From positions 11,805 to 75,804 of the forward strand of contig MHJU01000005.1 in assembly GCA_001818155.1 (NCBI GenBank): 64,000 bases of DNA, given 5' to 3'. This document shows positions 1 to 41,333 of this stretch, one piece after another (the first letter of the stretch is position 1; the number at the start of each line of letters is the position of its first letter). The translations under genes and the position numbers were made by a program. The notes beneath the pieces are model-generated. The model had not been told where the DNA came from, ran no database searches, and saw only the letters and a program-made list of their open reading frames with translations. Origin of the DNA: Candidatus Jacksonbacteria bacterium RIFCSPLOWO2_02_FULL_44_20. Lineage in GTDB: Bacteria; Patescibacteriota; Patescibacteriia; UBA9629.

Positions 1-1212
1 CGCGAGATTTTCCGTTTGTATAATATCTACCGGGTCCGTGCCTGTTAAGAGCATTTTTTGAAGAACTGTCTGCCCGGCGCGCGAGGAAATTTTACCTTCC
101 AAAATCAGCGAGACGAATTCAGCAAAATTTTCCGGGCTGACGGATAGCGTTTTCCAGTCGTTCTTGACTAACGGCGCGAGATTATTGATGAGCCAATTTG
201 CCGCGAGTTTTGCAAGACGCTGGCCCGAATTTTCTTCAGATTCTTGCTCTATTGACTCCATCCACGCAAGAAGTTCTGACATCACTTTTTCCGCGTAGTC
301 GGCGAGCGCGTAGTCGCGGGTTAAAAGGTTTGCATCTGAAATTGAAAATTCGTACTGCTTGTGAAAGCGTTCGCGTTTTTGTTTAGGAAGTTCAGGCAAA
401 GTTTTTTTAATTGCGCGAATGTCGGCAATTTTGAACTTGATTGGCGGAATATCAGGTTCGGGAAAATATCGGTAATCGTGAGCCGATTCTTTCTCGCGCT
501 GTTCCTCGGTTATTCCGCGCTCGTCGTTCCACCCGCGCGTGGACTGATGAGAAGGCGCTTTCCCATCTTTCCATAATTGTTCTTGTCGCTTGATTTCGTA
601 GTTCAGAGCTCGTTCAACTGCGCGAAATGAATTTAAATTTTTGATCTCTATTTTTGGATTGAGGACTCTGCTCCCTTCTTTTTTCAGTGATATATTTGCG
701 TCGCAACGCAAGTGCCCTTTTTCCATGTCGGCCTCCGAGACTTGAAGCGAGCGCATAATCGCGCGCAATTCACGAAGCGTATTCCCGGCAGTTTCAGGGC
801 TTTCAATATCCGGTTCTGTAACGATTTCCATGAGAGGAGTCCCGGCTCGGTTAAAGTCAATAATTGTGCATCCCTGCACTTTGGAATGCAGAAGTTTTGC
901 CGCGTCCTCTTCTAAATGCAAGCGATTGATTCTGATTTTTTTGTCTTCTATAAATAAAAAACCATTTTTTCCGAATGGCTCGTCATATTGCGATATTTGA
1001 TAACCCTTTGGCAGATCCGGATAAAAATAGTGTTTTCTATCAAACTTTGACTCAAGTGGAATCTCGCATGAGAGAGCCAGCGCGGAGAAGATTGCCCATT
1101 CAATTGCAGTTTTATTTGGAACCGGCAGAGTTCCCGGGTGACCCAGGCAAACTGGGCACACGGTTGTATTGATTGGCTTTTCTTCGCCAGAGTTATCGCA
1201 CGCGCAAAACAT
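1..1212 (-). CDS. gatB: Asp-tRNA(Asn)/Glu-tRNA(Gln) amidotransferase subunit B, N-terminal part (gene runs off the left window edge)
   Basis: Minus-strand translation from ATG at 1212..1210 reads MFCACDNSGEEKPINTTVCPVCLGHPGTLPVPNKTAIEWAI...KFDRKHYFYPDLPKGYQISQYDEPFGKNG, the conserved GatB N-terminus. It is missing from the ORF track because it is truncated by the window edge. Confidence 0.85.
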   Translation of the reverse strand, partial: MFCACDNSGEEKPINTTVCPVCLGHPGTLPVPNKTAIEWAIFSALALSCEIPLESKFDRKHYFYPDLPKGYQISQYDEPFGKNGFLFIEDKKIRINRLHLEEDAAKLLHSKVQGCTIIDFNRAGTPLMEIVTEPDIESPETAGNTLRELRAIMRSLQVSEADMEKGHLRCDANISLKKEGSRVLNPKIEIKNLNSFRAVERALNYEIKRQEQLWKDGKAPSHQSTRGWNDERGITEEQREKESAHDYRYFPEPDIPPIKFKIADIRAIKKTLPELPKQKRERFHKQYEFSISDANLLTRDYALADYAEKVMSELLAWMESIEQESEENSGQRLAKLAANWLINNLAPLVKNDWKTLSVSPENFAEFVSLILEGKISSRAGQTVLQKMLLTGTDPVDIIQTENLA

Positions 1213-1225
1213 TTTTGAGTTTGTT

Positions 1226-2065
1226 TTAAGCTGGACGTGAATTTCCAATCCTATTACCGGTTTTAAGTTCATGGTTTTCTAAAAGTTCTTCGGATTCTGC
1301 GCGCGTATTTTGAAACAGGCTAGTCGTGGCTATCACAAGATACGGCAATCCGAGATATGCATAGATGCTTACAATAAGATCTTTCCACCATGGCGATAAC
1401 GATTCAGCAAGTTCAGGGTTGAATAAGATGTCGGTTTGATGGGTGATTACAGCGATAATAAGCGTCGTTAGGATAGCTACAACGAGAGATATCATTATCG
1501 TAACAAGTAAAATACATATCAAGAGTAGCGATGTTTTTAGAGGGTGGTGAAGAAATAGCGTTACGCTTCCTTTGATGCTTTTAATCGGCCCTTGTTTTTC
1601 AATGACGAAAATGTAACTTGCAAACAATGAAAGCAGAGTTACCGCGATAATCCATGACGCGCTTATAATTGAGAGGAAAGTGAGCGAGTATGCATTTTCA
1701 ATTTTTTGTCCGATAATCGCCAAAAATGCCGGAACGCTGAACGTAATCAGCGATACAATAATAAAAAGCGCGAGAAACGGAATAGATCGCGAGAATGCGT
1801 CGCGAAAGACGATCCTCGCTCGCACCGGATTTAGAGATTCCATCGCGGCGCTTGCTGTTATGAGAGAAAGTAAAACAAATAAGGTAACTATGTTTAATAT
1901 GACGCCGAAAATAGTTGTGAAGACCGGCGCGAGTTCGCCAAAATTTGCGTAGCGGCCGATGATGTGAAGAAGAATCGTCGGAATCACTACAGGAGAGAGA
2001 AGTGTAAGGTAGAGAGAAAAACGGCGGATATAGATACGAAAGGCGTTGCGAATTATGTGTGTCAT
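1226..2065 (-). CDS. hypothetical polytopic membrane protein
   Basis: 279-aa ORF with about 6 hydrophobic helices. No recognisable motif. Co-directional and tightly packed with neighbours. Confidence 0.5.
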   Translation of the reverse strand: MTHIIRNAFRIYIRRFSLYLTLLSPVVIPTILLHIIGRYANFGELAPVFTTIFGVILNIVTLFVLLSLITASAAMESLNPVRARIVFRDAFSRSIPFLALFIIVSLITFSVPAFLAIIGQKIENAYSLTFLSIISASWIIAVTLLSLFASYIFVIEKQGPIKSIKGSVTLFLHHPLKTSLLLICILLVTIMISLVVAILTTLIIAVITHQTDILFNPELAESLSPWWKDLIVSIYAYLGLPYLVIATTSLFQNTRAESEELLENHELKTGNRIGNSRPA

Positions 2066-2093
2066 AATTAAAAATTCAAAATGTTTATGGATT

Positions 2094-2747
2094 TCATGCT
2101 GTAGTTTTGAGTTTCATTAACACGCGCTTCCAAATCGCTTCAGCTATCTCCTTTTTTCTCTTAATTTTGTTACCTCTATTGCATTTAATGATGCGCCACT
2201 TCTCTTTTCGCGCTAGTTCCAGTCCGTATCGCGCCGCACTTTTTAAGTGTTCGCGATCTTTTTCGTGGATATCTTTTTTCTTTCCTCGTTTTGTAATTAA
2301 AGCATAGGCAAGCGCGTGTGGCAAGGAAAGGTAAAGCACAAGATTTGGCCGCGTGATGTTAAGAACATCGTACTCCATTTTTTCAAGCCAAGATGTAAAC
2401 ACGGCTCTTTGATTGTAAGGGAGCTTGCTTCCCTGATGAATCAAATTTGATGTGGTATAACGGTTTGCAATGATTATTTTTTTCTGCTCCATCCATTTTA
2501 TAAGCGTCGCTTTCATCTCAAACCGATCAAGCGCGTATAAAATAGAAGCAAGATGAGGGTCAACCTCGTTTATTCCGCCGAATTCTCCATTTAAGAAGCG
2601 TCTGACAATCGCGCCGAAAAATGTGCGATCGTACCCTGGAAAATCCAGTTCTGCAACTTTATACCCTTCTTTTTTCAAGCGCTGTACCAGAAGTTTTTGT
2701 TGCGTTGTTTTTCCGGCGCCGTCTATGCCGTCAAGAACTATGAGCAT
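2094..2747 (-). CDS. tmk: thymidylate kinase
   Basis: P-loop MLIVLDGIDGAGKTTQ and overall Tmk-like length and layout. Confidence 0.9.
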   Translation of the reverse strand: MLIVLDGIDGAGKTTQQKLLVQRLKKEGYKVAELDFPGYDRTFFGAIVRRFLNGEFGGINEVDPHLASILYALDRFEMKATLIKWMEQKKIIIANRYTTSNLIHQGSKLPYNQRAVFTSWLEKMEYDVLNITRPNLVLYLSLPHALAYALITKRGKKKDIHEKDREHLKSAARYGLELARKEKWRIIKCNRGNKIKRKKEIAEAIWKRVLMKLKTTA

Positions 2748-2755
2748 AAATATTT

Positions 2756-3196
2756 TTACCCCGTGCTCCCGAATCCCCCTCGTGAATTGGGAGCAATTTC
2801 GTTAACCTCCTCAAATTCCGCAAGAGCGATTTTTACAAGCACTGCTTGAGCGAGTCGCGTGCCGCGCTCTATTGTAACCGGCTTGTCGGTAAAGTTGTAG
2901 AGTTGCAGAATCAATTCATCTTCCGGCCCGCAAAAATCCTGATCTATAATGCCTATGCCTTGTGGTATTGAAAGTCCGTACTTTCGCGGAGTTGAAGATC
3001 TTGGGACAACCATAAACATATATCCTGGCGGTGTTTCAATGATAACGTTTCCAGCAATTCGCGCGATTTCTTTTGGCGCTACTACGGCGTCTTCGCGCGC
3101 ATAAAGATCAAACGCAACCGCGCCTTTTGTCTGATATTCCGGAATCGGCAGAGTTTTATCTATGCGGATAATTTTTACTCGCGTGCGCTCATTCAT
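2756..3196 (-). CDS. dut: dUTP diphosphatase
   Basis: 146 aa with dUTPase motifs (AVAFDLYA, GIIDQDFCG, C-terminal RGGFGSTG). Confidence 0.9.
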   Translation of the reverse strand: MNERTRVKIIRIDKTLPIPEYQTKGAVAFDLYAREDAVVAPKEIARIAGNVIIETPPGYMFMVVPRSSTPRKYGLSIPQGIGIIDQDFCGPEDELILQLYNFTDKPVTIERGTRLAQAVLVKIALAEFEEVNEIAPNSRGGFGSTG

Positions 3197-4281
3197 AGTA
3201 GTGAAGTTAATTCTAAGAGTGTGTCAAATAAAAAGTCCGGGTTTTCCGCCGCTAGTTGCTCTTTGGAATGATAGCCGCTTCCGATGCCCGCCGATCGGAT
3301 GCCCGCCGCTCGCGCCGCACGTATATCGTGTATCGTGTCGCCGCAATACAACGCGTGTTTATTTTGAGTTTGGAAATGGGTTAGAATGTTTTGCAAATCC
3401 GTTTCTTTATTGCGCGATCCGCCGCGGATATGGGTTATGTATTGGTCAATGCCATACTCCTGCGCTTCTCGTTCTACAAATTTTTCTGGATGGCTTGAGA
3501 GTATCGCGATTTTTTTGTCGTTTGCTGTAAGTTGTCCAAAGACACTAGGCGCGTCAGCGTATATGGTTGGCTTGTTACCGTTTTTCACCGCTTCGTTGAA
3601 GTATTTCCTGAAGAGCTTTAGTAGTAAGTCCGCATCTTCGCTGATGTCGTTTTTGCGGTAGTATTCTAGGGCAGTCATCGTCGCGCTTTTCAAAAATTCA
3701 TCAAATACAGGCATTATTTTGCCGAATTGTTTAAGCACGCGCGCGGTCGTCTCGTATACAGGTTTTCTGTCGTCCGAGATCACCCCGCTCCAGTCAAAGA
3801 TAAAGAGATTGATGGGTGCTTGATACCATCGTTTACCACTCAACACTCCCCTCTCTTGAAACATCTCTCTAGCTCTTTTCACTAGATATATTTTTGTGAT
3901 TCCAGCAGAGCGCACTTTGTCCCAGCAGGATTCGCACGCCCACCAGTGTCCGAATATATACATTTCTCCGTTTTCGGTATCAACCCCGGCAAGCCGAGCG
4001 TTTCGGAGAGCATCCGCTTCGGTGTGATTTTCTTCTATGCACTCTGGGCACAGATTGTAGCCAATGCCGGAAGGGATATTTTGGATCGCGCGAGGACAAG
4101 GAGATGAAACCCGATCTCTCGCATTATGTCCGCGCGCAATTACCGTCTCTTTGTTTACGATCACTGCTCCGATTTGCCGTGATCCGCATCCTGATTTGTA
4201 CGCTTCTGCCCGCGCTTCTTGCATGAATGGGTGGGATGCTGGAGCATACTCATATTTATTATTATGTTTCAAGGTTTCCAT
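3193..4281 (-). CDS. fusion protein: dCMP deaminase (ComEB-like, N-terminal) + HAD-superfamily phosphatase (C-terminal, YjjG-like nucleotidase?)
   Basis: N-terminal half has the cytidine/deoxycytidylate deaminase zinc motifs (HTEADAL ... ACESC). C-terminal half has HAD motifs (FDWSGVISDD motif I, GDTIHDIRAARAAG motif IV). Confidence 0.8.
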   Translation of the reverse strand: METLKHNNKYEYAPASHPFMQEARAEAYKSGCGSRQIGAVIVNKETVIARGHNARDRVSSPCPRAIQNIPSGIGYNLCPECIEENHTEADALRNARLAGVDTENGEMYIFGHWWACESCWDKVRSAGITKIYLVKRAREMFQERGVLSGKRWYQAPINLFIFDWSGVISDDRKPVYETTARVLKQFGKIMPVFDEFLKSATMTALEYYRKNDISEDADLLLKLFRKYFNEAVKNGNKPTIYADAPSVFGQLTANDKKIAILSSHPEKFVEREAQEYGIDQYITHIRGGSRNKETDLQNILTHFQTQNKHALYCGDTIHDIRAARAAGIRSAGIGSGYHSKEQLAAENPDFLFDTLLELTSLL

Positions 4282-4930
4282 ATTTTTCTTTTAACTCTTC
4301 TAACTTTCCCTCCCGAATCAGCCGTATCTCATCCACGTTGTCCGAGCGCGCCTCCAAACTGTATGGAGTAGAGGCTGTATATTTTGCGTCCGCAACACCG
4401 TGTTTTCTGGTTTCTTCAGGAGGCACAGGGCTTGAAAGCGTATGAATGACAAGCTGGCAAATCCTCTCGCCAGGGTACAACCGGATAATCTGTCCGTTTG
4501 TGTTATTTACAATCGGGATCATCAGATACCCCGAGTACCCGACATCAATAATGCCGCTTTCAATGATGAGCCCTCGGCGGATGATTGTGCTACGCGCGTA
4601 CATCACAGCCATGAGCTTGTCTGATTTGATTGCGATTTTTTCGTACGTTGAGGCGATCACAAATTCAGACGGCAAAATCTCAAGATATTGCCCGGGCTTT
4701 ATATTTAAAAGTTTGAAATTCTCTTTTTTGTTTTCGTAATCCATATAATCCACAGTAAGGGCAACGCGCCCTTTTTCGTTATACTCGGAGTTTTTGGAAA
4801 TATAAAACATTGTTCCGAGCCGCAGATCAATGGAATTCGGCTGAACTTGATACTGGTCAAGCCGCGGCGTAAAGGAGAGATGTCCTTCGCGAATTGCTTT
4901 GACGATGTCGGTTTTTGAAAGAGTGGACAT
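4262..4930 (-). CDS. dcd: dCTP deaminase family protein
   Basis: RLDQYQVQPNSIDLRLG ... ARSTIIRRGLIIESGIIDVGYSGYLMIPIVN ... ADAKY pattern matches Dcd. Confidence 0.8.
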   Translation of the reverse strand: MSTLSKTDIVKAIREGHLSFTPRLDQYQVQPNSIDLRLGTMFYISKNSEYNEKGRVALTVDYMDYENKKENFKLLNIKPGQYLEILPSEFVIASTYEKIAIKSDKLMAVMYARSTIIRRGLIIESGIIDVGYSGYLMIPIVNNTNGQIIRLYPGERICQLVIHTLSSPVPPEETRKHGVADAKYTASTPYSLEARSDNVDEIRLIREGKLEELKEKYGNLET

Positions 4931-4969
4931 AAAAAATTAAAAATTCAAAAGTCAAAATGCAAAATTATT

Positions 4970-5803
4970 TTACAGCACAATTTTTAATCCTTTAAGCGCA
5001 GGCATTGGAGCATAGCGCGATTCAAACTGTCCTGTAATTTCTGAAACAAGCGTTTCGTCGCCCTGTTCAGCGCGGTCAAAGTAGTCGGGTTGAGCCGTAA
5101 AGTAGATGGGGCCGTGATCGTTTGTGCGATTAATAAGCTCCCATGCTGTGTCATAGTGAATGTCGTAAATGTGGGCGTTTGAGATAGAATGCGTAAGTTT
5201 TCCAGTGGCTACTCCGAGCTTTCCGGCAAGAATGCACAAAAGCAGATAAAATCCGGCAACGTCGTGCGGACAGCCGAGAATCATGTCGTTGCTCCGCACG
5301 ATATTGTGAATGTGCAGTTTGTTGTTAATGATATTTGCAGTAAACGTGTACGGGCAAGGGACGTTTTTTTTAGTCGTGCCGCTTTCCCCAAGTCCGTCGT
5401 CTCCCGGATCCCACGTTACAACAACAGCGTGGCGCGAGCCGGGATTTTCTTTAAGATGCGTAATAAGCTCGCCCAACTGATCCCTGCCGAAGTGATGTCG
5501 CCAGCGGTATCCGTAGGCGGCCGTGACAGTACCGTCTTTTTCAGTAAAATCTTTCCAGATGTTGGTAAATTTGTTGACAAAATCATCAGGGTTGCGGCTT
5601 CCTGTTATAAACCATATCATTTCAGCAACAAAAAGAGTAATGGGAATTTTCCGGAGCGTCAAGAGCGGGTAGCCGTAGTCAAGTTCAAAGTTTACACCCG
5701 GCAATACTTTGAGCCTATGCCCCGTCCGCTCGTTATATTCGTCCGAGCCTGTGTTCATTATGCGACGCAGGATTTCCTGATATTGACGGTCAAATTGGGT
5801 CAT
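4970..5803 (-). CDS. ThyA-family pyrimidine-nucleotide C5 methyltransferase homolog with Asp at the Asn177(E. coli)/Asn229(L. casei) discriminator position (possible dCMP-acting enzyme; see findings)
   Basis: Motifs conserved: ERTGHR, YPLLTLRK, AEMIWF, AAYGYRWR, ENPGSRH, catalytic VPC(167)PY, RSNDMILGCPHD(198)VAGFYLL, AHIY, and a ThyA-like C-terminus. The ORF track starts at 5854; the probable start is Met18 (MTQFDRQYQEIL) at 5803. Confidence 0.85.
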   Translation of the reverse strand: MTQFDRQYQEILRRIMNTGSDEYNERTGHRLKVLPGVNFELDYGYPLLTLRKIPITLFVAEMIWFITGSRNPDDFVNKFTNIWKDFTEKDGTVTAAYGYRWRHHFGRDQLGELITHLKENPGSRHAVVVTWDPGDDGLGESGTTKKNVPCPYTFTANIINNKLHIHNIVRSNDMILGCPHDVAGFYLLLCILAGKLGVATGKLTHSISNAHIYDIHYDTAWELINRTNDHGPIYFTAQPDYFDRAEQGDETLVSEITGQFESRYAPMPALKGLKIVL

Positions 5804-5814
5804 TTTTGATTTTT

Positions 5815-6303
5815 TTAGCCTTGATACACTATCTTGCCGTTTGATTTTGCCCATTCTTCGGAAAAACCAACGTGCGATATCACGTTACTGCTTCTATCAA
5901 GCTGACGTTCGGTTTCTTTCAATAGAATACCGGGCTGAATTTCATAAATGACCTTAATTTTCAATGGATTTGCCTTGTAAAATATCGCCAAGTAAATCAT
6001 CTTATTACGAGTTATACGATACAAAGATTCAGCCCTTTTGTCTGTCGGCGACTTAAACATTCGGTCCAGTTGCCCGGTTCCTCCTTCGTAACAAGATAGA
6101 TATTCGTACTTCATTGACGGGTCGTTTTTATCACGAGCGTCCGCATCTCTTTTTGAAGCTATCAATTCGTGTCCAAGAGTTTCTGAAATTATCATCTCTT
6201 TAACTAACCCGGGTTGCAAAATGTTAGGAATACCGATACTTAATGCTAACTCCTGCGCTTTAACCACAAGCTCAATGATTCTAGAAATTATTTTTTGCAC
6301 CAT
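5815..6303 (-). CDS. putative Type II restriction endonuclease (small, PvuII-like?)
   Basis: 162-aa ORF immediately downstream of a DNA methyltransferase and co-oriented with it. It is AT-rich like the MTase. Weak resemblance to PvuII REase (LSIGIPNILQPGLVKEMIISETLG; D..KYEYLS region) recalled from memory only. Confidence 0.45.
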   Translation of the reverse strand: MVQKIISRIIELVVKAQELALSIGIPNILQPGLVKEMIISETLGHELIASKRDADARDKNDPSMKYEYLSCYEGGTGQLDRMFKSPTDKRAESLYRITRNKMIYLAIFYKANPLKIKVIYEIQPGILLKETERQLDRSSNVISHVGFSEEWAKSNGKIVYQG

Positions 6304-6305
6304 AT

Positions 6306-7100
6306 TTATACAAATAGTTTACTCTCTTGTTTTAATTTGATTTCTTTTATCCTTTTATTGCAGATTTCAACAAAAGCAGAGTTAATTTCAAATCCTATAA
6401 AATTTCGTTTTAGTTCTTTGCAAACCGCAAATGTGGTTCCAACTCCGGCAAATGGATCTAATACCAAATCTCCTTCATTAGAACTGGCTTTTACAATTCT
6501 TTCTATCAGCTTAATTGGCTTTTGTATAGTATTCAAAAGTTCCCTGCTTATTAATTCTTTGGATTTGTATGTAAGTTGTTTAATGTCGCCCCACACGTCG
6601 CCGGGATTCTTGCCGTTGCCGTTAAATTTCGTTTTGTGAAATTTACCATTCATAACCGACGGCACATTTTCACATCTTTTTCTATGCTCCAACTCAACCA
6701 ACTGCGGGACGCGGATATGGTTTAAGTTAAATACTTTAGTAGTTTTTCCTTTAGTGAAGTAGGCGATTATATCATAGTTATTTGTATAGTTAGTTCTTCC
6801 TTGGGCCAGTCTGCTTGGCTGATACCATACAATTTTCGCATTTAAGTTCAGATATGGGCGATAATCAATAAAGTCAATACAATCAGGTTTCCCGAATAGA
6901 TATAACGAGCCGCCTTTCTTTAATATCCTTGAGAATAATTTTATTAGATTTAAATTATATTCCTGTATATTTTTTATTTTATCCCAATCGTTTTCAGTTA
7001 CTCCGAACGGGCCATCGCATACGATTAAATTTATTGATTCGTCATCAATTTGTTTTATGAGTTCAAAACAGTCGCCTTGATAAACTTTGTTTATTTTCAT
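6306..7100 (-). CDS. DNA methyltransferase, beta-class amino-MTase (N4-cytosine or N6-adenine)
   Basis: Motif IV-like LIVCDGPFG near the N-terminus and AdoMet motif I VLDPFAGVGTTFAV near the C-terminus, i.e. beta-group order. About 31% GC versus about 45-50% in flanking genes. Confidence 0.8.
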   Translation of the reverse strand: MKINKVYQGDCFELIKQIDDESINLIVCDGPFGVTENDWDKIKNIQEYNLNLIKLFSRILKKGGSLYLFGKPDCIDFIDYRPYLNLNAKIVWYQPSRLAQGRTNYTNNYDIIAYFTKGKTTKVFNLNHIRVPQLVELEHRKRCENVPSVMNGKFHKTKFNGNGKNPGDVWGDIKQLTYKSKELISRELLNTIQKPIKLIERIVKASSNEGDLVLDPFAGVGTTFAVCKELKRNFIGFEINSAFVEICNKRIKEIKLKQESKLFV

Positions 7101-7106
7101 CTTTTT

Positions 7107-7625
7107 CTATAGCACTTTATATTTCACCAGCACCTCGTCATCTCCCAACCGTTTAACCTCGGTGAGTTTCAGCGTTTCGGCATTCAGTTCAACATCATTG
7201 CCAAATATACTTACTCCGCGGCCGAAAATTTTTGGCGCTATCGTGAAATATAGTTCGTCAACTAGTTTCTCGCGGAGAAAGAGCGCATAAATTTCCGCGC
7301 CTCCTCCGATAACCGCTCGTTTGAAACCGCGCTCGCTTAATTCTTTTAAAATACCGCGCGGCGCGGTATTTTTGAACTCCAAAACATTCGGGACTTCGCG
7401 CTCTTTGTAAAGATGCGGACTTCGCGTCATAACAAGAGTGAGGCGATTTTTGAGCGGTTTCGGGAGCGCCTGATAAGTATGCGATCCGACAATCACAACC
7501 CCGGCTTTTTCGGTTTGCTCCTTAAAAAAGCGCTTGTCAGCGCTTGATGTCCAATCTACATTGTGGAGAGCGTGTTTTGCTATTTTTCCGTCAAGAGTTA
7601 TAGCGGCTATCAGTATTGTTTGCAT
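7107..7625 (-). CDS. dihydrofolate reductase family protein (RibD C-terminal-domain type)
   Basis: MQTILIAAITLDGKIA ... VIGGGAEIY pattern typical of RibD_C/DHFR-like reductases. Sits in the position thyA-folA would occupy. Confidence 0.7.
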   Translation of the reverse strand: MQTILIAAITLDGKIAKHALHNVDWTSSADKRFFKEQTEKAGVVIVGSHTYQALPKPLKNRLTLVMTRSPHLYKEREVPNVLEFKNTAPRGILKELSERGFKRAVIGGGAEIYALFLREKLVDELYFTIAPKIFGRGVSIFGNDVELNAETLKLTEVKRLGDDEVLVKYKVL

Positions 7626-7836
7626 ATAGATAAATGGCGCGCGCTTGGCGTACTTGCAGAGTATATTTCAATACGGCTTTAATTTGATCTTTAGTTATCC
7701 GCAATGTTTGCGCGATTTCTTCAATCGTCGCGCCATCGGCAAGTTTATCAATGACGATATCAGTTGTTACATAGGTGCCTTTTATCGTCGGTTTTCCAGT
7801 TTGTTCGTCAGTGATAATTTCGTTTAATGATTGCAT
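7591..7836 (-). CDS. DUF433-like small HTH protein
   Basis: 81 aa with GKPTIKGTYVTTDIVIDKLADGATIEEIAQ, resembling the DUF433 consensus (GKPCIRGTRIPV..L..G.S.EEI). Overlaps the DHFR-like start by 35 nt. Confidence 0.55.
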   Translation of the reverse strand: MQSLNEIITDEQTGKPTIKGTYVTTDIVIDKLADGATIEEIAQTLRITKDQIKAVLKYTLQVRQARAIYLYANNTDSRYNS

Positions 7837-7904
7837 TGGTTATACCTGCGATAGAGTGCATGCGTATGGCGAGAAGCACCATTATACACACGCCAGCTCG
7901 CAGA

Positions 7905-8453
7905 TTAAATCGTCATAATCTCCTCTTCTTTACGCTTCCCCAGTTCGTCAATTTTTTCCGTATACTCGCGCGTAGTTTCGTTAAGTTTTTCTATTTCCGC
8001 AAACTTATGGTCCTCGCGAATTTCCTTATTTTTTTCTCTTGTTTCAATATCTTTTTTTGCCTCGTCGCGGATTTTGCGGATTTTGATGCGCTCTTCTTCA
8101 AGCATAGTATGCAGTTTTTTCACGATTCTATGCCGCGATTCTTCTGTTAATTCCGGAAGTTGTATCCGCAAAATATTTGTTTCCACAATTGGGTTGAACT
8201 CAAGCGCGGACTTGATAAGCCCTTTTTCTATATCTTTAATGATGCTTTTGTCCCATGGCTTGATGACGATCGTCCTTGGCTCGGGCGCGCTGATTGACGC
8301 AAGTTCTTTTAGATGCATCCGCGATCCGCCGTATACTTCAATTGTTATATCTTGAACAAGCGAGGGCGTTGCGCGCGATGTGCGGAGTTTTGAAAGTTCG
8401 GTTTTGAGTTGATCTATGATTTGGTTAAAATGCGATTCGTATTGGGTTATCAT
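7905..8453 (-). CDS. frr: ribosome recycling factor
   Basis: 182 aa, Frr-like throughout (VYGGSRMHLKELASIS..., charged C-terminal helix). Confidence 0.9.
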   Translation of the reverse strand: MITQYESHFNQIIDQLKTELSKLRTSRATPSLVQDITIEVYGGSRMHLKELASISAPEPRTIVIKPWDKSIIKDIEKGLIKSALEFNPIVETNILRIQLPELTEESRHRIVKKLHTMLEEERIKIRKIRDEAKKDIETREKNKEIREDHKFAEIEKLNETTREYTEKIDELGKRKEEEIMTI

Positions 8454-8476
8454 ATAGAAATGTAAATTTTTTATTT

Positions 8477-9559
8477 TTAATTCTTCCCCACTCCTATGTA
8501 TACAATATTTCCATCTAAATCATCAACAAGTATTTCAACAGGCTCGCCTTCAGTATACAAAGGCAGGGCGCTCCATGATTCTCCATTATTGACGCTTTTA
8601 AAGAGAGATTCTTTGGTCCCATAGTATAGCTCTTGTTCGCGCAAAGGGTTGAAGCCTATAGCGGTTACTGTTCCAGCACCAGAGCTTGAGAGAAGCGTTG
8701 GCGCGGTCCATGTTCCGCCGCTATCTTGAGAAATCAAAAGTCCGGCAGAGCTTGCAAGAAATAGGTGCGAGGGATTTTGTTGATTTATTTTGAACTGATG
8801 CACACGTTCGCTTCCTTTGAATGATTTTAATGCGTGGAGGATGTTCCAATTCACTCCCATGTCCTCGCTTTGGAAAACTCCCTCATATTCTGTTGCGATG
8901 TACATTTCATTTGGATTTTTTGAATTAATTATAAGATCCTTAATCGTTTTGACGCGTATTTTTTTCATCAATCTCCATGAAGCGCCATTGTCCTCGCTTC
9001 CAAACAATGATCCGTTTCGCGTTACGGCAAAAATGCGCGCAGAGAGAGAAGGATGAACTGCAATTGCCGCTATAAGATCGCCGCCAGTTTCAACAGGAAT
9101 TGAATTCCAGACTGTTCCTCCGTCTCTGCTTTGTAAAATTTTCGCGCCTTTGGCAAGATAGATTGTTCCGCGTTTTTCAGGATCAAGCGCAAATGCGTCA
9201 GCTTCCCCTTCAACAAGATTTTCCACGCTTTCACCTCCATTATAACTCACCCATAACCCTTTATTTTTTGAAAGCAGGTAAAGAGTGAGAGTGTCTTGCG
9301 GGTCAAATTGCAATCTTGAAATATTGAGATTGTCAACAGTTTCTTTTTCCGTTACGCGTCCTTTGAAAATAAATGATTTTCCTTTGTCCACTGATTTAAA
9401 TATGCCAATTCTTCTGTCGCGCTGAATATTCGCTGGCGTGTTTGAAGCGCGCGGTTCTCCTATTCTGATGCCGAAAGCCGTGCAACCGCTTGTTAATATC
9501 CAAATTGCGATAAAGACGGCGCATCTTTTGATGAAAGTTTTAATAAAATCGTGCTCCAT
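8477..9559 (-). CDS. BNR/Asp-box repeat beta-propeller lipoprotein
   Basis: Signal peptide with lipobox (ILTSGC). Repeated SxDxGxTW-type motifs (SRDGGTVW, SEDNGASW, SEDMGVNW, SQDSGGTW, NNGESW). Confidence 0.6.
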   Translation of the reverse strand: MEHDFIKTFIKRCAVFIAIWILTSGCTAFGIRIGEPRASNTPANIQRDRRIGIFKSVDKGKSFIFKGRVTEKETVDNLNISRLQFDPQDTLTLYLLSKNKGLWVSYNGGESVENLVEGEADAFALDPEKRGTIYLAKGAKILQSRDGGTVWNSIPVETGGDLIAAIAVHPSLSARIFAVTRNGSLFGSEDNGASWRLMKKIRVKTIKDLIINSKNPNEMYIATEYEGVFQSEDMGVNWNILHALKSFKGSERVHQFKINQQNPSHLFLASSAGLLISQDSGGTWTAPTLLSSSGAGTVTAIGFNPLREQELYYGTKESLFKSVNNGESWSALPLYTEGEPVEILVDDLDGNIVYIGVGKN

Positions 9560-36552: not shown

Positions 36553-39096
36553 CTATGATTTCACATATTTTTTCAGATACTTCCCGGTTAAACTTTTCTC
36601 ATTTTGCGCCACGTCCTCTGGGGTCCCGGTTGCGATTACCTGCCCGCCGTTTATTCCACCTCCTGGCCCTAAATCAATAATATAATCCGCTGTTTTAATA
36701 ACATCCATATTATGCTCAATCACCACAACTGTACTCCCCTGCAAGACAATTTTTTGGAGTACTGTCAATAATTGACGGACGTCGTCAAAGTGCAAACCTG
36801 TTGTCGGCTCATCGAACAAATATAGTGTTCGCTCCCCTGCTCGCCGTGAAAGTTCTTTAGAAAGCTTAACGCGTTGCGCCTCTCCGCCAGAGAGAGTGTT
36901 TGCTGGCTGTCCGAGTTCAAGATATCCTAAACCCACTTCCCGCAATGTCTTCAAGCGGTCTCCAATGGTCGGAATATCCTTAAAAAATTCATGAGAGTCT
37001 TCAACTGTCATAGCAAGCACCTCGGCAATGTTTTTCTTTTTATAGTGAACTTCCAATGTTTCGCGATTAAAACGTTTGCCTTTACAAATGTCGCACGTTA
37101 TGTAAACAGTCGGAAGAAAGTGCATTTCAATCGCAAGATAACCATAACCTCGGCAATTTTCACACCTACCGCCGTTGATATTAAAAGAAAATCGCCCTGG
37201 TTTATAATTTCTGAATCTGGCTTCAGTTGTTGCAGAAAATAGATCTCGTATATGTCCAAACGCGCCGGTATAGGTCGCCGGGTTTGATCTTGGAGTTCTG
37301 CCGATCGGGGACTGATCAATCAAAACGGCGCGGTTTAGATATTCTACGCCATTGATCTCTTTTACATTTTCCTCGGTGTTTTTAATGCGGTTTAAGCGCC
37401 GAACAATATTTGTGTACAGAACATCATATAGAAGCGAACTCTTGCCAGAACCTGAAACGCCGGTAACACAGACAAAACGCCGGAGCGGAATTTCAACAGT
37501 GATATTTTTGAGATTATTCGCCCGCGCGCCGATGATAGTCAGCCTATCAAGATTATTTTTTCTTCTCTGTGTAGGCACTGGAATCGCTTTTTCTCCACGA
37601 AGATATGAACATGTAAGAGATTTTTTATTCTTTAAAATTTCCGGCATATCGCCAAAGCATACAATTTCTCCTCCTTGTTTTCCTGCTCCTGGTCCGAAAT
37701 CAACGAGATAATCGCTTTCCCGAATCGTGTCTTCGTCGTGCTCAACCACAATAATCGTGTTTCCGATATCGCGCAAGTGTTTCAAAGTTTCCACAAGCCG
37801 GGCATTGTCATGCTGATGAAGTCCGATTGTCGGCTCATCAAGAACATAAAGCGCGCCTACGAGATGTGAGCCTACTTGAGAGGCAAGCCTTATTCGCTGT
37901 GCCTCGCCACCGGAAAGAGTGCCTGCTCTACGGTTTAAGGTTAAGTATTCCAGTCCGACGTCCATCATAAACTGAAGCCGATTTAGCACCTCTTTCATGA
38001 TTGATTTTGAAATATCCTTTTGCCGCGTTGAAAGTTTGAGAGTAAGAAAGAAATCCGTGGTCTCTTCAATCGTCATTTCCGAGAGTTCAACGATATTTTT
38101 ACGATTTATGAGCACTGAAAGGGCCTCGCCACGGAGCCGTTTGCCAGAGCAGACAGAGCATGAAATTTCAGAAAAAAGAGACTCTGTTCCCAAACCGTGG
38201 CAAGTTTCGCACGCGCCATAAGGGCTGTTAAAACTAAACAGGCGCGGCTCAATCTCGGGAAAGCTGAATCTACATGAAGGACAGCTAAAAGTGGAGGAAA
38301 ATGTGTGTTCAACTCCATCTTCAAACTGCACTGTGATGGCGCCGTTTCCATAATCAAGAGCTGTTTCAATTGCCTCGCTCAACCTCTCGCGTTTATCGCG
38401 TTCCTCATGCGCTGATGCGCTTTGCTCGTCTTTTGGGAAATCGTTTTTATAAAGAGTGTCAACCGCAAGTTCAATAGTGTGGCGTTTTTTGGGATCAATC
38501 TCAATTTTATTTGAGAGCAGTCGCAATATCCCATCAACGCGCACTTTCATAAAACCAGAATTATACATATTGTAGAGCATCTGATAGTATTCCCCTTTTC
38601 GCCCGCGCACAATCGGAGCAAAAATTACGACTGCCTGATCTTTTTTAGAATGTTTGACATCTTTTTGAGTTAAAAGAATCGCATCAGCTATTTCGTCGGT
38701 TGTCATTTTTTGAATTCGATTTCCGCACTTTGGACAGTTGGGCTCTCCGATGCGCGCAAAGAGCACGCGCAGATAGTCGTAAATTTCAGTGATAGTTGCG
38801 ACTGTTGAGCGAGGATTTGCGCTGTGGGCTTTTTGATCAATAGAAATCGCGGGCGACAATCCTTCTATTTCATCCACGTCCGGCTTTTGCATTTGTCCTA
38901 GAAATTGCCGCGCATAAGCAGAAAGCGATTCCACATAACGTCTCTGCCCCTCGGCAAAAATCGTATCAAAAGCAAGCGAGGATTTTCCGCTTCCGGAAAC
39001 GCCTGTAAACACCGTCATTTTATTGCGGGGTATTTCTAATGATATGTTTTTTAAGTTATGCTCCCGCGCGCCTTTGATAGTGATGGCATCTATCAT
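36553..39096 (-). CDS. uvrA: excinuclease ABC subunit A
   Basis: Two ABC modules (GVSGSGKSSL x2), zinc fingers (CPKCG, CETCHG, CENCRG), LSGGE signature motifs. Confidence 0.9.
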   Translation of the reverse strand: MIDAITIKGAREHNLKNISLEIPRNKMTVFTGVSGSGKSSLAFDTIFAEGQRRYVESLSAYARQFLGQMQKPDVDEIEGLSPAISIDQKAHSANPRSTVATITEIYDYLRVLFARIGEPNCPKCGNRIQKMTTDEIADAILLTQKDVKHSKKDQAVVIFAPIVRGRKGEYYQMLYNMYNSGFMKVRVDGILRLLSNKIEIDPKKRHTIELAVDTLYKNDFPKDEQSASAHEERDKRERLSEAIETALDYGNGAITVQFEDGVEHTFSSTFSCPSCRFSFPEIEPRLFSFNSPYGACETCHGLGTESLFSEISCSVCSGKRLRGEALSVLINRKNIVELSEMTIEETTDFFLTLKLSTRQKDISKSIMKEVLNRLQFMMDVGLEYLTLNRRAGTLSGGEAQRIRLASQVGSHLVGALYVLDEPTIGLHQHDNARLVETLKHLRDIGNTIIVVEHDEDTIRESDYLVDFGPGAGKQGGEIVCFGDMPEILKNKKSLTCSYLRGEKAIPVPTQRRKNNLDRLTIIGARANNLKNITVEIPLRRFVCVTGVSGSGKSSLLYDVLYTNIVRRLNRIKNTEENVKEINGVEYLNRAVLIDQSPIGRTPRSNPATYTGAFGHIRDLFSATTEARFRNYKPGRFSFNINGGRCENCRGYGYLAIEMHFLPTVYITCDICKGKRFNRETLEVHYKKKNIAEVLAMTVEDSHEFFKDIPTIGDRLKTLREVGLGYLELGQPANTLSGGEAQRVKLSKELSRRAGERTLYLFDEPTTGLHFDDVRQLLTVLQKIVLQGSTVVVIEHNMDVIKTADYIIDLGPGGGINGGQVIATGTPEDVAQNEKSLTGKYLKKYVKS

Positions 39097-41096
39097 GTAT
39101 GTTTTTGGTTCAGAGATTTTTTTAACATTTTCACCTCATCCCGCAAAACCGTTGCGAGTTCAAATTCTAAACGTTTCGCGGCAAAGCGCATCTCGCGCTC
39201 TTTCTCCGCGATGATTTTTTCAACTTTTGCGATCGGAGCCGCCTTTAATTCTAAATCCAAAATCTCTTTAACATCCTTCTCTTTAATTCCCCAAATTTTC
39301 GTGATATCACGAATTTCTTTTTTAATCGTCTGCGGCGTGATGCCGTGTTTTTTATTATAAGCGAGCTGTTTTTCTCTTCGGCGATTCGTTTCATCCACTG
39401 CGCGTTTTATTGAGCCTGTAATAACATCTGCATATAAAATAACTTTTCCTTGAACATTGCGCGCGGCTCGGCCTATTGTTTGGATAAGCGATGTTTCGGA
39501 GCGCAAAAATCCTTCTTTATCAGCGTCTAGAATTGCCACAAGCGTAACTTCCGGCAAATCAAGGCCTTCGCGGAGCAGGTTTACCCCAACCAAACAATCA
39601 AAGACGCCTTTTCTAAAATCAGTAAGAATGCGGATACGATCAAGCGTTTTTATATCGCTATGCAGATACCGTGTTTTAATACCTCGTTCAACTAAATACG
39701 AGGTTAAGTCCTCTGCCATTTTTTTGGTAAGTGTAGTTACAAGCACGCGTTCGCGTTTTTTCGCGCGCGTTGCAATTTCGCCGATCACGTCTTCAACCTG
39801 GCTCCAATTTTTGTTCGTCTCAACAATCGGCCGCACTTCAACTTCCGGATCCACTAATCCAGTTGGCCGAATAATTTGCTCTACTACTTCCGATGATATG
39901 CGAAGCTCGTACTCGCTTGGAGTTGCTGAAATAAAGATACATTGATTGATGCGCGCGGTAAATTCCGCAAACATGAGCGGACGGTTGTCGCGCGCGCTTG
40001 GCAGGCGAAAACCGTGTTCAATAAGAGTATTTTTGCGGGACTTATCTCCTTCATACATTCCGCGAAGTTGAGGAGTTGTTACATGAGATTCATCTATAAT
40101 AAGGAGAAAATCCTTTGGAAAATATGAGAATAAAGTCGCGGGCGGCTTTCCGGAAGCTCGGCCGTCAAAATGGCGCGAGTAATTTTCAATTCCAGAGCAG
40201 TAGCCAATCTCCCGCATCATCTCAAGATCATAGTTTGTGCGCCTTTCCAGCCGCTCCTCTTCAAGAAGAAGCCCGTGTTTTTTGAAATACACGAGGCGTT
40301 CTTTCAGTTCCTTGCGAATTGTTTTGATTGCTTTCAGTTTTTCCGGTTCAAGTGTTACAAAGTGGCGGGCAGGAAACATTATAAGATCCGCGCGTTCACA
40401 TATTCGTTTTTGGCTGATCGGATCTATCTCAAGAATTCCTGCGATGAGATTTTTATTTAGTTCAATGCGGTAAATAACCTCGCCTTTTACCGGCATTATT
40501 TCAAGGATCGGTCCTCGTGCCCGGAATTTTCCTCGTTCAATGGCGCCGCTTGTTCGCGTGAACCCTAACGTAATCAGTTTTCGCATCAAAATGCTTCGTC
40601 CACATAGCGCGTCTTTTTTAATATAAATTACCTCTTTTTCGTAATTCTTGGGAGATCCAAGTCCGTATAAGCATGAAACCGATGCGACGACAATCACGTC
40701 GCGCCTTGAGAGAAGTGATTGGGTTGTTGAGTGGCGCAGGCGATCAATCTCATCATTGATTTGAGCCTCTTTTTCTATGTATGTGTCTGTTCTCGGCAGA
40801 TATGCCTCTGGTTGATAATAATCGTAATAGGAAACAAAATATTCAACTGCATTTTTTGGAAAAAATTCTCGGAATTCATTGCACAGTTGCGCGGCAAGCG
40901 TTTTGTTATGAGCGATTACAAGTGTCGGCTTTTGAACATTTTGTATAACGTTTGCAATCGTAAAAGTTTTTCCTGATCCAGTAACCCCAAGAAGAGTTTG
41001 GTATTTTAGCTTTTTTGAAAGACCTTGAACTAACTTTTTAATCGCTTTTGGTTGATCGCCGGCTGGTTCTAAATGCGTTGCGAGTTTGAATGGCAT
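39093..41096 (-). CDS. uvrB: excinuclease ABC subunit B
   Basis: Helicase motifs (GVTGSGKT, DESH), beta-hairpin region, C-terminal UVR motif. True start MPFKLATHLEPAGDQ at 41096. The ORF-track N-terminal extension to 41267 is antisense to tRNA-Tyr and is rejected. Confidence 0.9.
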   Translation of the reverse strand: MPFKLATHLEPAGDQPKAIKKLVQGLSKKLKYQTLLGVTGSGKTFTIANVIQNVQKPTLVIAHNKTLAAQLCNEFREFFPKNAVEYFVSYYDYYQPEAYLPRTDTYIEKEAQINDEIDRLRHSTTQSLLSRRDVIVVASVSCLYGLGSPKNYEKEVIYIKKDALCGRSILMRKLITLGFTRTSGAIERGKFRARGPILEIMPVKGEVIYRIELNKNLIAGILEIDPISQKRICERADLIMFPARHFVTLEPEKLKAIKTIRKELKERLVYFKKHGLLLEEERLERRTNYDLEMMREIGYCSGIENYSRHFDGRASGKPPATLFSYFPKDFLLIIDESHVTTPQLRGMYEGDKSRKNTLIEHGFRLPSARDNRPLMFAEFTARINQCIFISATPSEYELRISSEVVEQIIRPTGLVDPEVEVRPIVETNKNWSQVEDVIGEIATRAKKRERVLVTTLTKKMAEDLTSYLVERGIKTRYLHSDIKTLDRIRILTDFRKGVFDCLVGVNLLREGLDLPEVTLVAILDADKEGFLRSETSLIQTIGRAARNVQGKVILYADVITGSIKRAVDETNRRREKQLAYNKKHGITPQTIKKEIRDITKIWGIKEKDVKEILDLELKAAPIAKVEKIIAEKEREMRFAAKRLEFELATVLRDEVKMLKKSLNQKHT

Positions 41097-41146
41097 AAAA
41101 TTTTTGACATTGCGATATTTTTTGACAAAAAACTCCCTTTTGTAAA

Positions 41147-41166
41147 CCTGCCTGACGGCAGTCAGG
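41147..41166. repeat. palindromic element copy B (CCTGCCTGACGGCAGTCAGG), 1 nt from the 3' end of tRNA-Tyr and upstream of uvrB
   Basis: Same family. 6-bp stem CCTGAC/GTCAGG with GGCA loop. Confidence 0.6.
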
Positions 41167-41167
41167 T

Positions 41168-41255
41168 TGGTGGGCCGGGAGGGATTCGAACCCCCGAAGG
41201 CGTGAAAGCCAACTGGTTTACAGCCAGTCCCATTTGTCCGCTTTGGTACCGACCC
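41168..41255 (-). tRNA. tRNA-Tyr (anticodon GTA), long variable arm, CCA encoded
   Basis: Reverse complement GGGTCGGTACCAAAGCGGACAAATGGGACTGGCTGTAAACCAGTT...GGGGGTTCGAATCCCTCCCGGCCCACCA folds as a cloverleaf with anticodon loop CUGUAAA. Confidence 0.85.
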
Positions 41256-41257
41256 TA

Positions 41258-41333
41258 TGGAGCCCACGCGCGGATTTGAACCGCGGACCTACTCCTTACC
41301 ATGGAGTTGCTCTACCAACTGAGCTACGTGGGC
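41258..41333 (-). tRNA. tRNA-Thr (anticodon GGT), CCA encoded
   Basis: Reverse complement GCCCACGTAGCTCAGTTGGTAGAGCAACTCCATGGTAAGGAGTAGGTCCGCGGTTCAAATCCGCGCGTGGGCTCCA. Anticodon loop AUGGUAA. Confidence 0.85.

Follow-up and report, generated by a model that had tools for sequence, protein, structure and literature searches.

Thymidylate synthesis is regarded as universal, with dUMP being methylated by either ThyA or ThyX. To our knowledge, a route that methylates first and then deaminates is so far known only from viruses, and older papers on phage Xp12 (reportedly Kuo et al. 1982 and Wang & Ehrlich 1982) are said to have traced its thymidine to 5-methyl-dC. Here, we describe a nucleotide-metabolism operon from Candidatus Jacksonbacteria bacterium RIFCSPLOWO2_02_FULL_44_20, a member of the Patescibacteria or Candidate Phyla Radiation (CPR). 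It lies at positions 2094-7836 of a 64,000-nucleotide stretch of contig MHJU01000005.1, and this whole stretch is referred to below as the window. On balance, we lean towards regarding the operon as a CPR form, chromosomal and passed on vertically, of the nucleotide-level Xp12 pathway, which would methylate dCMP and then deaminate the product to thymidine nucleotides.

In phages, several components of such a pathway have been characterised. Phage Xp12 gets thymidine from 5-methyl-dC nucleotides, and its thymidylate synthase (TS) homologue, together with five of seven metavirome TS homologues of the Asp type, yielded 5-methyl-dC (5mdC) in vivo (bioRxiv 10.1101/2024.12.05.627091). In the same study, most of the 56 active deaminases in a screen preferred 5-methylcytosine (5mC) or 5-hydroxymethylcytosine (5hmC) substrates, phage deaminases linked to Asp-type TS were often 5mC-selective, and one characterised deaminase converted 5mdCTP to dTTP (bioRxiv 10.1101/2024.12.05.627091). 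The Asp in question occupies position 177, where an N177D change turns TS into a dCMP methylase (Liu & Santi 1992; Hardy & Nalivaika 1992, cited in PMC8670742), and the two positions that best tell cytosine-modified phage contigs apart are 177 and 147 (PMC8670742). According to published work, domains of Asp-type TS, PRA-PH and dCMP deaminase co-occur on such contigs. Phages Xp12, Mallos and RcRudolph share the gene order PRA-PH NTP-pyrophosphohydrolase, Asp-type TS, dCMP deaminase and dihydrofolate reductase (DHFR), and phage 83-24 has PRA-PH, Asp-type TS and deaminase genes with no annotated DHFR.

The cluster in the window consists of nine co-directional open reading frames (ORFs), all read from the minus strand, and no overlap or gap between neighbours exceeds 39 nt. 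Pfam and NCBIfam profiles confirmed the DUF433, DHFR/RibD_C, ThyA-family, Dcd-family, dCMP-deaminase plus HAD, dUTPase and dTMP kinase assignments. In reading order on the minus strand, the genes are:

7591-7836, minus strand: DUF433 small HTH-like protein, 81 aa (PF04255, E=2e-12)
7107-7625, minus strand: DHFR-like protein, 172 aa (PF01872 RibD_C, E=1.5e-19; PF00186 DHFR_1, E=2.6e-15; phrog_316 DHFR)
6306-7100, minus strand: beta-class amino DNA methyltransferase, N6-adenine or N4-cytosine (PF01555 N6_N4_Mtase, E=1.9e-42)
5815-6303, minus strand: putative PvuII-like restriction endonuclease, 162 aa (AlphaFold2 model and Foldseek)
4970-5803, minus strand: ThyA homologue with the TS fold, of the Asp177/Pro147 clade, 277 aa, ORF reaching 5854 (PF00303, E=3.4e-50)
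4262-4930, minus strand: Dcd-like protein that lacks the catalytic Glu of deaminases, 222 aa (PF22769 DCD, E=2.7e-29)
3193-4281, minus strand: zinc dCMP-family deaminase fused to a HAD-IA phosphatase domain (PF00383, E=2.3e-10; PF13419 HAD_2, E=1.1e-22)
2756-3196, minus strand: canonical trimeric dUTPase, 146 aa (TIGR00576, 105.5 bits, cut-off 102.55; PF00692, E=1.3e-22)
2094-2747, minus strand: dTMP kinase, 217 aa (TIGR00041, 91.3 bits, cut-off 83.25; PF02223, E=8e-25)

The first-pass annotation of this DNA had described seven nucleotide-metabolism genes packed on one strand. The seven genes are real and co-directional, but there are nine ORFs, and its list omitted the methyltransferase and the 162-aa ORF between the DHFR and ThyA genes. 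Dense gene packing is by itself normal for bacteria; the informative signal is the conserved residue changes together with the conserved linkage.

The cluster resembles the Xp12-type pathway in having an Asp177/Pro147 TS homologue (hereafter the Asp-type ThyA), an adjacent dCMP-family deaminase and DHFR-like protein, and a partner of the NTP-pyrophosphatase type. The resemblance extends to the proposed logic, in which dCMP would be methylated and then deaminated for thymidine nucleotides. Unlike its phage counterpart, the CPR module is chromosomal, belongs to a cellular lineage and is conserved in hundreds of species beside housekeeping genes. It also shares its families (Dcd, Dut, ThyA, FolA, Tmk and, in Gram-positives, dCMP deaminase), its operon logic and its thyA-folA linkage with canonical bacterial dTTP synthesis, but differs from it in the Asp for Asn177 and Pro for His147 of ThyA and in a Dcd that lacks the catalytic Glu.

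The Asp-type ThyA most likely starts at Met18 (4970-5803), since its homologues (276-277 aa) begin 17 residues later than the ORF. In HMMER alignments against solved thymidylate synthases, its Asp lies opposite the specificity residue Asn177 ('phdvagf' versus 'pfniasy') and its Pro opposite His147 ('pcpytf' versus 'pchamf'). Residues are numbered by E. coli ThyA, whose sequence agrees with the PDB alignments. By this numbering, R21, E58, W80, Y94, R126, C146, R166, S167, D169, H207 and Y209 are retained, and W83 is replaced by Phe, R127 by His, L143 by Asn and Q165 by Val. The protein scores 117.7 against TIGR03284 (cut-off 108.35) and falls under the cut-offs of the remaining NCBIfam equivalog models. 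It has the fold and profile of a canonical ThyA and, apart from R127 and W83, its catalytic, phosphate-binding (Arg) and folate-binding (Asp169) residues, and lacks the Asn177 and His147 pair.

These substitutions are shared by nearly all close relatives. Among the 120 closest database homologues (65-99% identical), Pro147 is present in every one and the Asp177 motif in 119. They come from Uhr-, Kuenen-, Falkow- and Doudnabacteria and other Patescibacteria, and have a TS-like C-terminus ('...IKGMKIVL') in common. When the net was cast wider, to the 136 nearest relatives among 50%-identity representatives of 1.84 billion proteins, about 120 had Asp177 and most of those also had Pro147. A neighbour-joining tree cleanly separates a clade of H147/N177 sequences, to which E. 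coli ThyA belongs, from the Asp clade. The CPR family falls in the Asp clade, as do the TS homologues from phages Xp12, Mallos, RcRudolph and 83-24. Pairwise comparisons agree, with 36% identity to Xp12 TS (E=3e-46) versus 27% to E. coli ThyA (E=4e-29). A 'HFGRDQL' motif and a 'DGLG..G..KNVPCP' insertion are common to the CPR protein and Xp12-type TS. The Asp-type ThyA is thus predicted to be a folate-dependent dCMP C5-methyltransferase that produces dihydrofolate (DHF). Its methylation of dCMP, with the product either deaminated to thymidylate or used for 5mC DNA as in XP12, had been suggested in the first-pass annotation, and the suggestion gains comparative support from Asp177/Pro147, the Xp12 clade and the linkage to DHFR and deaminase genes.

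Relatives also occur on viral contigs. Six such contigs carry TS of the Pro147/Asp177 type that are 46-53% identical to the CPR protein; on five, dut-like and/or deaminase genes lie in the vicinity, and on the remaining one a deaminase is accompanied by a weak match to the Dcd-like protein. Natural fusions were seen within the Asp clade as well, namely deaminase with Asp-type TS in database protein P0134 and PRA-PH with Asp-type TS in P0181. Other TS homologues are fused to an HNH endonuclease domain (P0169) or a guanylate-kinase-like domain (P0230, in which residues 147 and 177 were not read).

An alternative account is an ordinary thymidylate operon. Here, the Asp-type ThyA would be dUMP-specific despite its Asp (for example, through a protonated Asp in a shifted pocket), the Dcd-like protein would be a dUTPase in a Dcd scaffold and the deaminase would convert dCMP to dUMP. 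The scores of the ThyA and Dcd homologues, above the cut-offs of TIGR03284 and TIGR02274, fit this account, and in databases and CPR papers the gene goes under the name thyA and dTMP synthesis is taken to be present. We nonetheless regard it as rather unlikely. Asn177 is the known dUMP/dCMP switch, all H147/N177 sequences in the tree lie outside the clade of the Asp-type ThyA, and the protein is less distant from the Xp12 enzyme, a proven dCMP methylase, than from E. coli ThyA. Moreover, the combination of Asp-type TS, deaminase, NTP-pyrophosphatase and DHFR marks cytosine-modified phage genomes.

How far the module extends was assessed by a family scan of one genome per GTDB species, which found the Asp-type ThyA family in at least 427 genomes, nearly all of them Patescibacteria and a few labelled Chloroflexi. 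Neighbours within 4 kb of the gene were then counted in the best 80 species loci; counts over 82 loci also include the organism's own two contigs. The Dcd-like protein is a neighbour in 78 of the 80 loci, the DHFR-like gene in 74, a zinc dCMP-family deaminase in 68 and serine hydroxymethyltransferase (SHMT) in 24. The commonest gene order, ThyA-DHFR-Dcd-like-deaminase, was found at 26 loci, followed by deaminase (on the opposite strand)-ThyA-Dcd-like-DHFR at 14. Within 10 kb, tmk is present in 38/82 loci and dut in 21/82. In the first-pass annotation, the proposal was held to be vulnerable to such operons being ubiquitous in relatives with canonical TS residues. The operon is indeed widespread, yet ThyA has Pro147 and Asp177 in 79/80 loci.

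This conservation also bears on whether the Asp-type ThyA might be a dCMP hydroxymethylase like gp42 of phage T4, feeding 5hmC or, after deamination, 5-hydroxymethyluracil. The T4 system (gp56 dCTPase, gp42 dCMP hydroxymethylase, cd dCMP deaminase, frd DHFR and gp1 dNMP kinase) has a similar make-up, with an Asp-type, dCMP-directed TS homologue, a dCTP-hydrolysing partner and a dCMP deaminase. Asp177 is common to the T4 enzyme and the CPR protein, and phage deaminases linked to Asp-type TS can act on 5hmdC nucleotides. However, T4 has a separate true TS, and the CPR module has no conserved dNMP kinase like gp1. Identity to the T4 hydroxymethylase is 21% (E=8e-10), as opposed to the 36% shared with the Xp12 methylase, and T4-type hydroxymethylases were not among the 60 best solved-structure matches. 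No glycosyltransferase or other transferase is conserved near the gene across the 80 loci. The frequent DHFR and SHMT neighbours fit a reductive methylation that produces DHF, and the C-terminus is TS-like. A hydroxymethylase is therefore very improbable, and the preference for methylation already expressed in the first-pass annotation, on the basis of the DHFR and the ThyA-like C-terminus, agrees with the wider set of loci.

The second departure from canonical dTTP synthesis is the Dcd-like protein, which is 100% identical to one from Candidatus Jacksonbacteria. It passes the dCTP deaminase family profile (TIGR02274, 113.3 bits, cut-off 92.8). When it is aligned by HMMER with Dcd proteins of M. 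tuberculosis and E. coli, their catalytic Glu (Glu138 in E. coli, 'sghitlEl') is opposite a Pro ('sgylmiPi'), and R110, S111, R115 and D128 are kept. The change is shared by its relatives. At 79 loci where the homologue is linked to the Asp-type ThyA, the position holds Pro in 76, Ser in three and Glu in none, and the 119 closest homologues in a search of 5.8 billion proteins all have Pro. A C-terminal extension of about 45 residues is also conserved in the family, which is nearly absent from 2.9 million viral contigs.

Deamination by Dcd requires the catalytic Glu, and loss of this residue is incompatible with the mechanism. Since the Glu is replaced by Pro, the protein cannot be a deaminase, and its earlier assignment as a dCTP deaminase that clears dCTP to dUTP does not hold. 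Because the triphosphate-binding and catalytic-Asp residues are retained, it is more likely a pyrophosphatase, with dCTP or 5-methyl-dCTP as the predicted substrate. It would then occupy the slot held in Xp12 by PRA-PH, a gene that the window cluster lacks. The substitutions of Asn by Asp in the TS and of Glu by Pro or Ser in the linked Dcd-like protein suggest that both enzymes moved away from uracil chemistry in concert.

Relatives of known structure are consistent with hydrolysis of a triphosphate. The bifunctional dCTP deaminase-dUTPases (DCD-DUT) of M. tuberculosis and M. jannaschii are among the best solved-structure matches, with 2qxx ranking first by single sequence and second by family profile, and this family shows that the Dcd scaffold can hydrolyse triphosphate. 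The CPR protein differs from it in having Pro for the deaminase Glu and in its C-terminal extension. With the family profile, bacterial Dcd structures matched best, followed by E. coli dUTPase, and archaeal-type Dcd-like dUTPase matched only weakly. An identity as an archaeal-type Dcd-like dUTPase was considered and not favoured, with E-values of 1e-21 to 1e-14 for bacterial Dcd versus 3.7e-7 for 9w59 and an NF002598 score far under its cut-off. Nor is the protein likely to be merely the cell's dUTPase, since a canonical dUTPase lies two genes downstream; for an ordinary thymidylate operon, a second dUTPase in the same operon would be redundant. A possible functional analogue is human DCTPP1, a MazG-like dCTP/5-methyl-dCTP pyrophosphatase with a fold unrelated to that of the Dcd-like protein. 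DCTPP1 is described as keeping 5-modified dCTP out of DNA by hydrolysis to the monophosphate.

At two loci, the Dcd-like gene with Pro was found without the Asp-type ThyA nearby. There (L087, 5061-6822, and L089, 8001-9340), the next gene encodes either an APH-like phosphotransferase (matched weakly) or a 222-aa protein that fits no known family. These copies have HAD and PfkB genes close by, which may point to a salvage context.

The third component is the zinc deaminase, whose domain (about 3883-4230) is joined to a HAD-IA phosphatase domain (about 3286-3801) in the ORF at 3193-4281. Among solved structures, its closest relative is 2hvv, a dCMP deaminase of S. mutans, with which the H-x-E and C-x-x-C motifs align ('HTE'/'HAE' and 'CESC'/'CINC'). 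The deaminase is predicted to turn 5-methyl-dC nucleotides into dT nucleotides. The fusion to HAD was found only in this organism's own assemblies (the window and L001). In a metagenome-assembled genome from NCBI (L002, about 2430-2620), an apparent split between deaminase and HAD is a scaffold gap filled with Ns. A sister species (L003, 11500-12700) has them as separate adjacent genes in different frames. A HAD domain occurs near the Asp-type ThyA only in L001-L003, and the fusion is a lineage-specific local addition outside the conserved module. A parallel with Xp12 was considered, as the gene just upstream of TS in that phage (MT664984; L086, 21208-21981) is annotated 'hydrolase (HAD superfamily)'. 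By Pfam, however, this gene is PF01503, PRA-PH/MazG-like, and the parallel was rejected, which leaves the HAD domain in the window without a counterpart in Xp12. In phage Mallos, the product annotated 'putative DNA binding protein' (L083, 5213-5971) likewise belongs to PRA-PH.

The remaining enzymes of the operon would support these steps. The DHFR-like protein shares 26% identity with that of Xp12 (E=9e-9) and is proposed to recycle the DHF produced by the Asp-type ThyA. The linkage to DHFR also distinguishes the CPR module from the T4 hydroxymethylase, by arguing for methylation. Three CPR folA genes, possible orthologues of the DHFR gene in the window, complement an E. coli delta-folA strain (PMC11974145). 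The translated dUTPase has the C-terminal 'RGGFGSTG' motif. Single ORFs that match both this dUTPase and the dTMP kinase were observed at L020 (about 13611), L039 (about 4304) and L057 (about 9283), so that some CPR genomes may encode fused dut-tmk proteins.

Taken together, residues, clade membership, linkage and phage precedent suggest the following pathway. The Dcd-like protein would hydrolyse dCTP and/or 5-methyl-dCTP to the monophosphate. With 5,10-methylene-tetrahydrofolate, the Asp-type ThyA would then convert dCMP to 5-methyl-dCMP and DHF, as its specificity residues and its place in the clade of the Xp12 enzyme indicate. DHFR, together with SHMT in many genomes, would regenerate the cofactor, a role to which their linkage points. 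The zinc deaminase would convert 5-methyl-dC nucleotides to dT nucleotides, at whichever phosphate level, before Tmk carries dTMP onward; Dut would exclude dUTP from DNA. The net result would be thymidylate by 'methylate, then deaminate' in place of 'deaminate, then methylate'.

Several points weigh against this proposal. The activities of the cluster's enzymes are predictions, and every gene family present also belongs to the textbook dTTP pathway, as an ordinary operon would have it. The Dcd-like protein with Pro is also found away from any Asp-type ThyA in Saccharimonadales and on one 1-Mb contig, so its function is not exclusively tied to that enzyme. Pro at the Glu position is likewise seen in dUTPase-like proteins of viral contigs, which makes a dUTPase role possible. 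Both observations also suit an ordinary operon. The CPR deaminase is of a different subfamily from that of Xp12 and has no specific similarity to it, and a cell with a continuing need for dCTP must somehow keep a dCTPase in check. Of the seven Asp-type TS from phages, two gave no 5mdC (bioRxiv 10.1101/2024.12.05.627091). Lastly, motif regular expressions run over 1.4 Mb (the window and related loci), a search of low power, found the Asp-type ThyA and no second TS, ThyX or C5 DNA methylase. A second TS (thyX or a canonical thyA) or a thymidine kinase may lie elsewhere in the genomes.

A further possibility builds on the proposed methylate-then-deaminate pathway and extends it to the chemistry of the genome. 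As in Xp12, dCTP would be depleted and 5-methyl-dCTP supplied, most or all genomic cytosine would be 5mC, and part would be deaminated. Xp12 and related phages, in whose DNA 5mC fully takes the place of cytosine, have the same set of functions, and the strict conservation of a pyrophosphatase-like partner is what would be expected if dCTP must be excluded. One locus (L090) also has an extra P-loop nucleotide-kinase-like gene inside the cluster, but genes of this type are not conserved. Moreover, the module is present in at least 427 species genomes, yet no report of unusual CPR DNA was found in the literature. The intact methylase beside the PvuII-like nuclease provides a weak counterargument, as it suggests that self-protection is still by site-specific methylation. 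A 5mC genome thus seems distinctly doubtful; if true, this would be the first cellular lineage with wholesale base substitution. If CPR bacteria do methylate dCMP and deaminate afterwards, the use of 5mC as a bulk base by a cell would be open to direct testing.

The gene at L090 (9153-9722) encodes a 189-aa protein with AAA_17 and weak dNK/CoaE matches, and is flanked by the deaminase on one side and dut on the other. Its product may serve as a nucleotide monophosphate kinase that acts on the modified nucleotide.

A search of the literature on Patescibacteria or CPR with dCMP, 5mC or thymidylate synthase found no account of a cellular methylate-then-deaminate pathway, and CPR literature and databases name these genes thyA and dcd. 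The chemistry itself is known from phages. What is new, in that it was not found in the papers searched, is its conserved chromosomal form in a cellular radiation with a Dcd-derived partner. If the proposed pathway is correct, a large bacterial group of hundreds of species makes thymidylate, or even 5mC DNA, by an otherwise viral route, and metabolic reconstructions of CPR bacteria mis-assign two enzymes, "thyA" and "dcd". The Xp12 pathway would gain a cellular relative and possibly an evolutionary source, and the Dcd-like protein without Glu would represent a new activity in the dUTPase/Dcd superfamily. There is practical interest as well, as 5mC-selective deaminases and dCMP methylases are already in use as sequencing reagents.

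Two further insertions in the operon fall outside this pathway. The 162-aa ORF had no Pfam, NCBIfam or PHROG match, but its AlphaFold2 model (mean pLDDT 91.8) found chains of PvuII as best Foldseek matches (1eyu_B, E=1e-7, TM 0.68, probability 1.0). The adjacent methyltransferase scores 133.8 bits against NF008572, under the cut-off. On the strength of the structural model, the two form a putative PvuII-like restriction-modification pair of type IIP, which interrupts the operon between the DHFR and ThyA genes (5815-7100). Homologues of the nuclease are 73-100% identical across Jacksonbacteria, Bacteroidota and Omnitrophica, and this, together with a GC content of 0.39 in 6001-8000 versus about 0.44 in the flanks, suggests recent horizontal transfer of a mobile restriction-modification cassette. 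The DUF433 gene, which overlaps the start of DHFR by 35 nt, had been counted among the nucleotide-metabolism genes. It adjoins the module and is not part of the nucleotide pathway, since no homologue is present in any of the 80 related loci. The methylase and the 162-aa ORF are absent from those loci too, and all three occur beside the Asp-type ThyA in this organism only. Like the HAD fusion, the restriction-modification pair and DUF433 are local additions outside the conserved module.

The setting of the operon is that of a CPR chromosome and not of a prophage, because the surrounding genes are ordinary chromosomal ones. A prophage origin was rejected on the basis of the flanks (frr, a holB-like gene, mreB, gatB, gyrB, uvrAB and secA), and is also disfavoured by locus contexts that vary among species while identity of the Asp-type ThyA declines gradually. 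The remainder of the 64-kb window likewise holds frr, mreB, gyrB, PBP2, uvrA, uvrB, secA and secDF. The cluster's proteins were also found on contigs of a JGI metagenome and of GCA_003519425.1. A scan of 1000-9000 for promoters and terminators gave counts equal to those in shuffled sequence and hence no information on operon boundaries.

Elsewhere in the window, adjacent tRNA-Tyr(GTA) and tRNA-Thr(GGT) genes on the minus strand (41168-41333) overlap the 5' end of the uvrB ORF (39093-41267, GTG start), and the true start of uvrB is therefore probably further downstream. In addition, a SecD/SecF-family protein (50689-52422) has an unusual insertion, a PPIC-type peptidyl-prolyl isomerase (Rotamase) domain between the first P1 segment and the P1 head.

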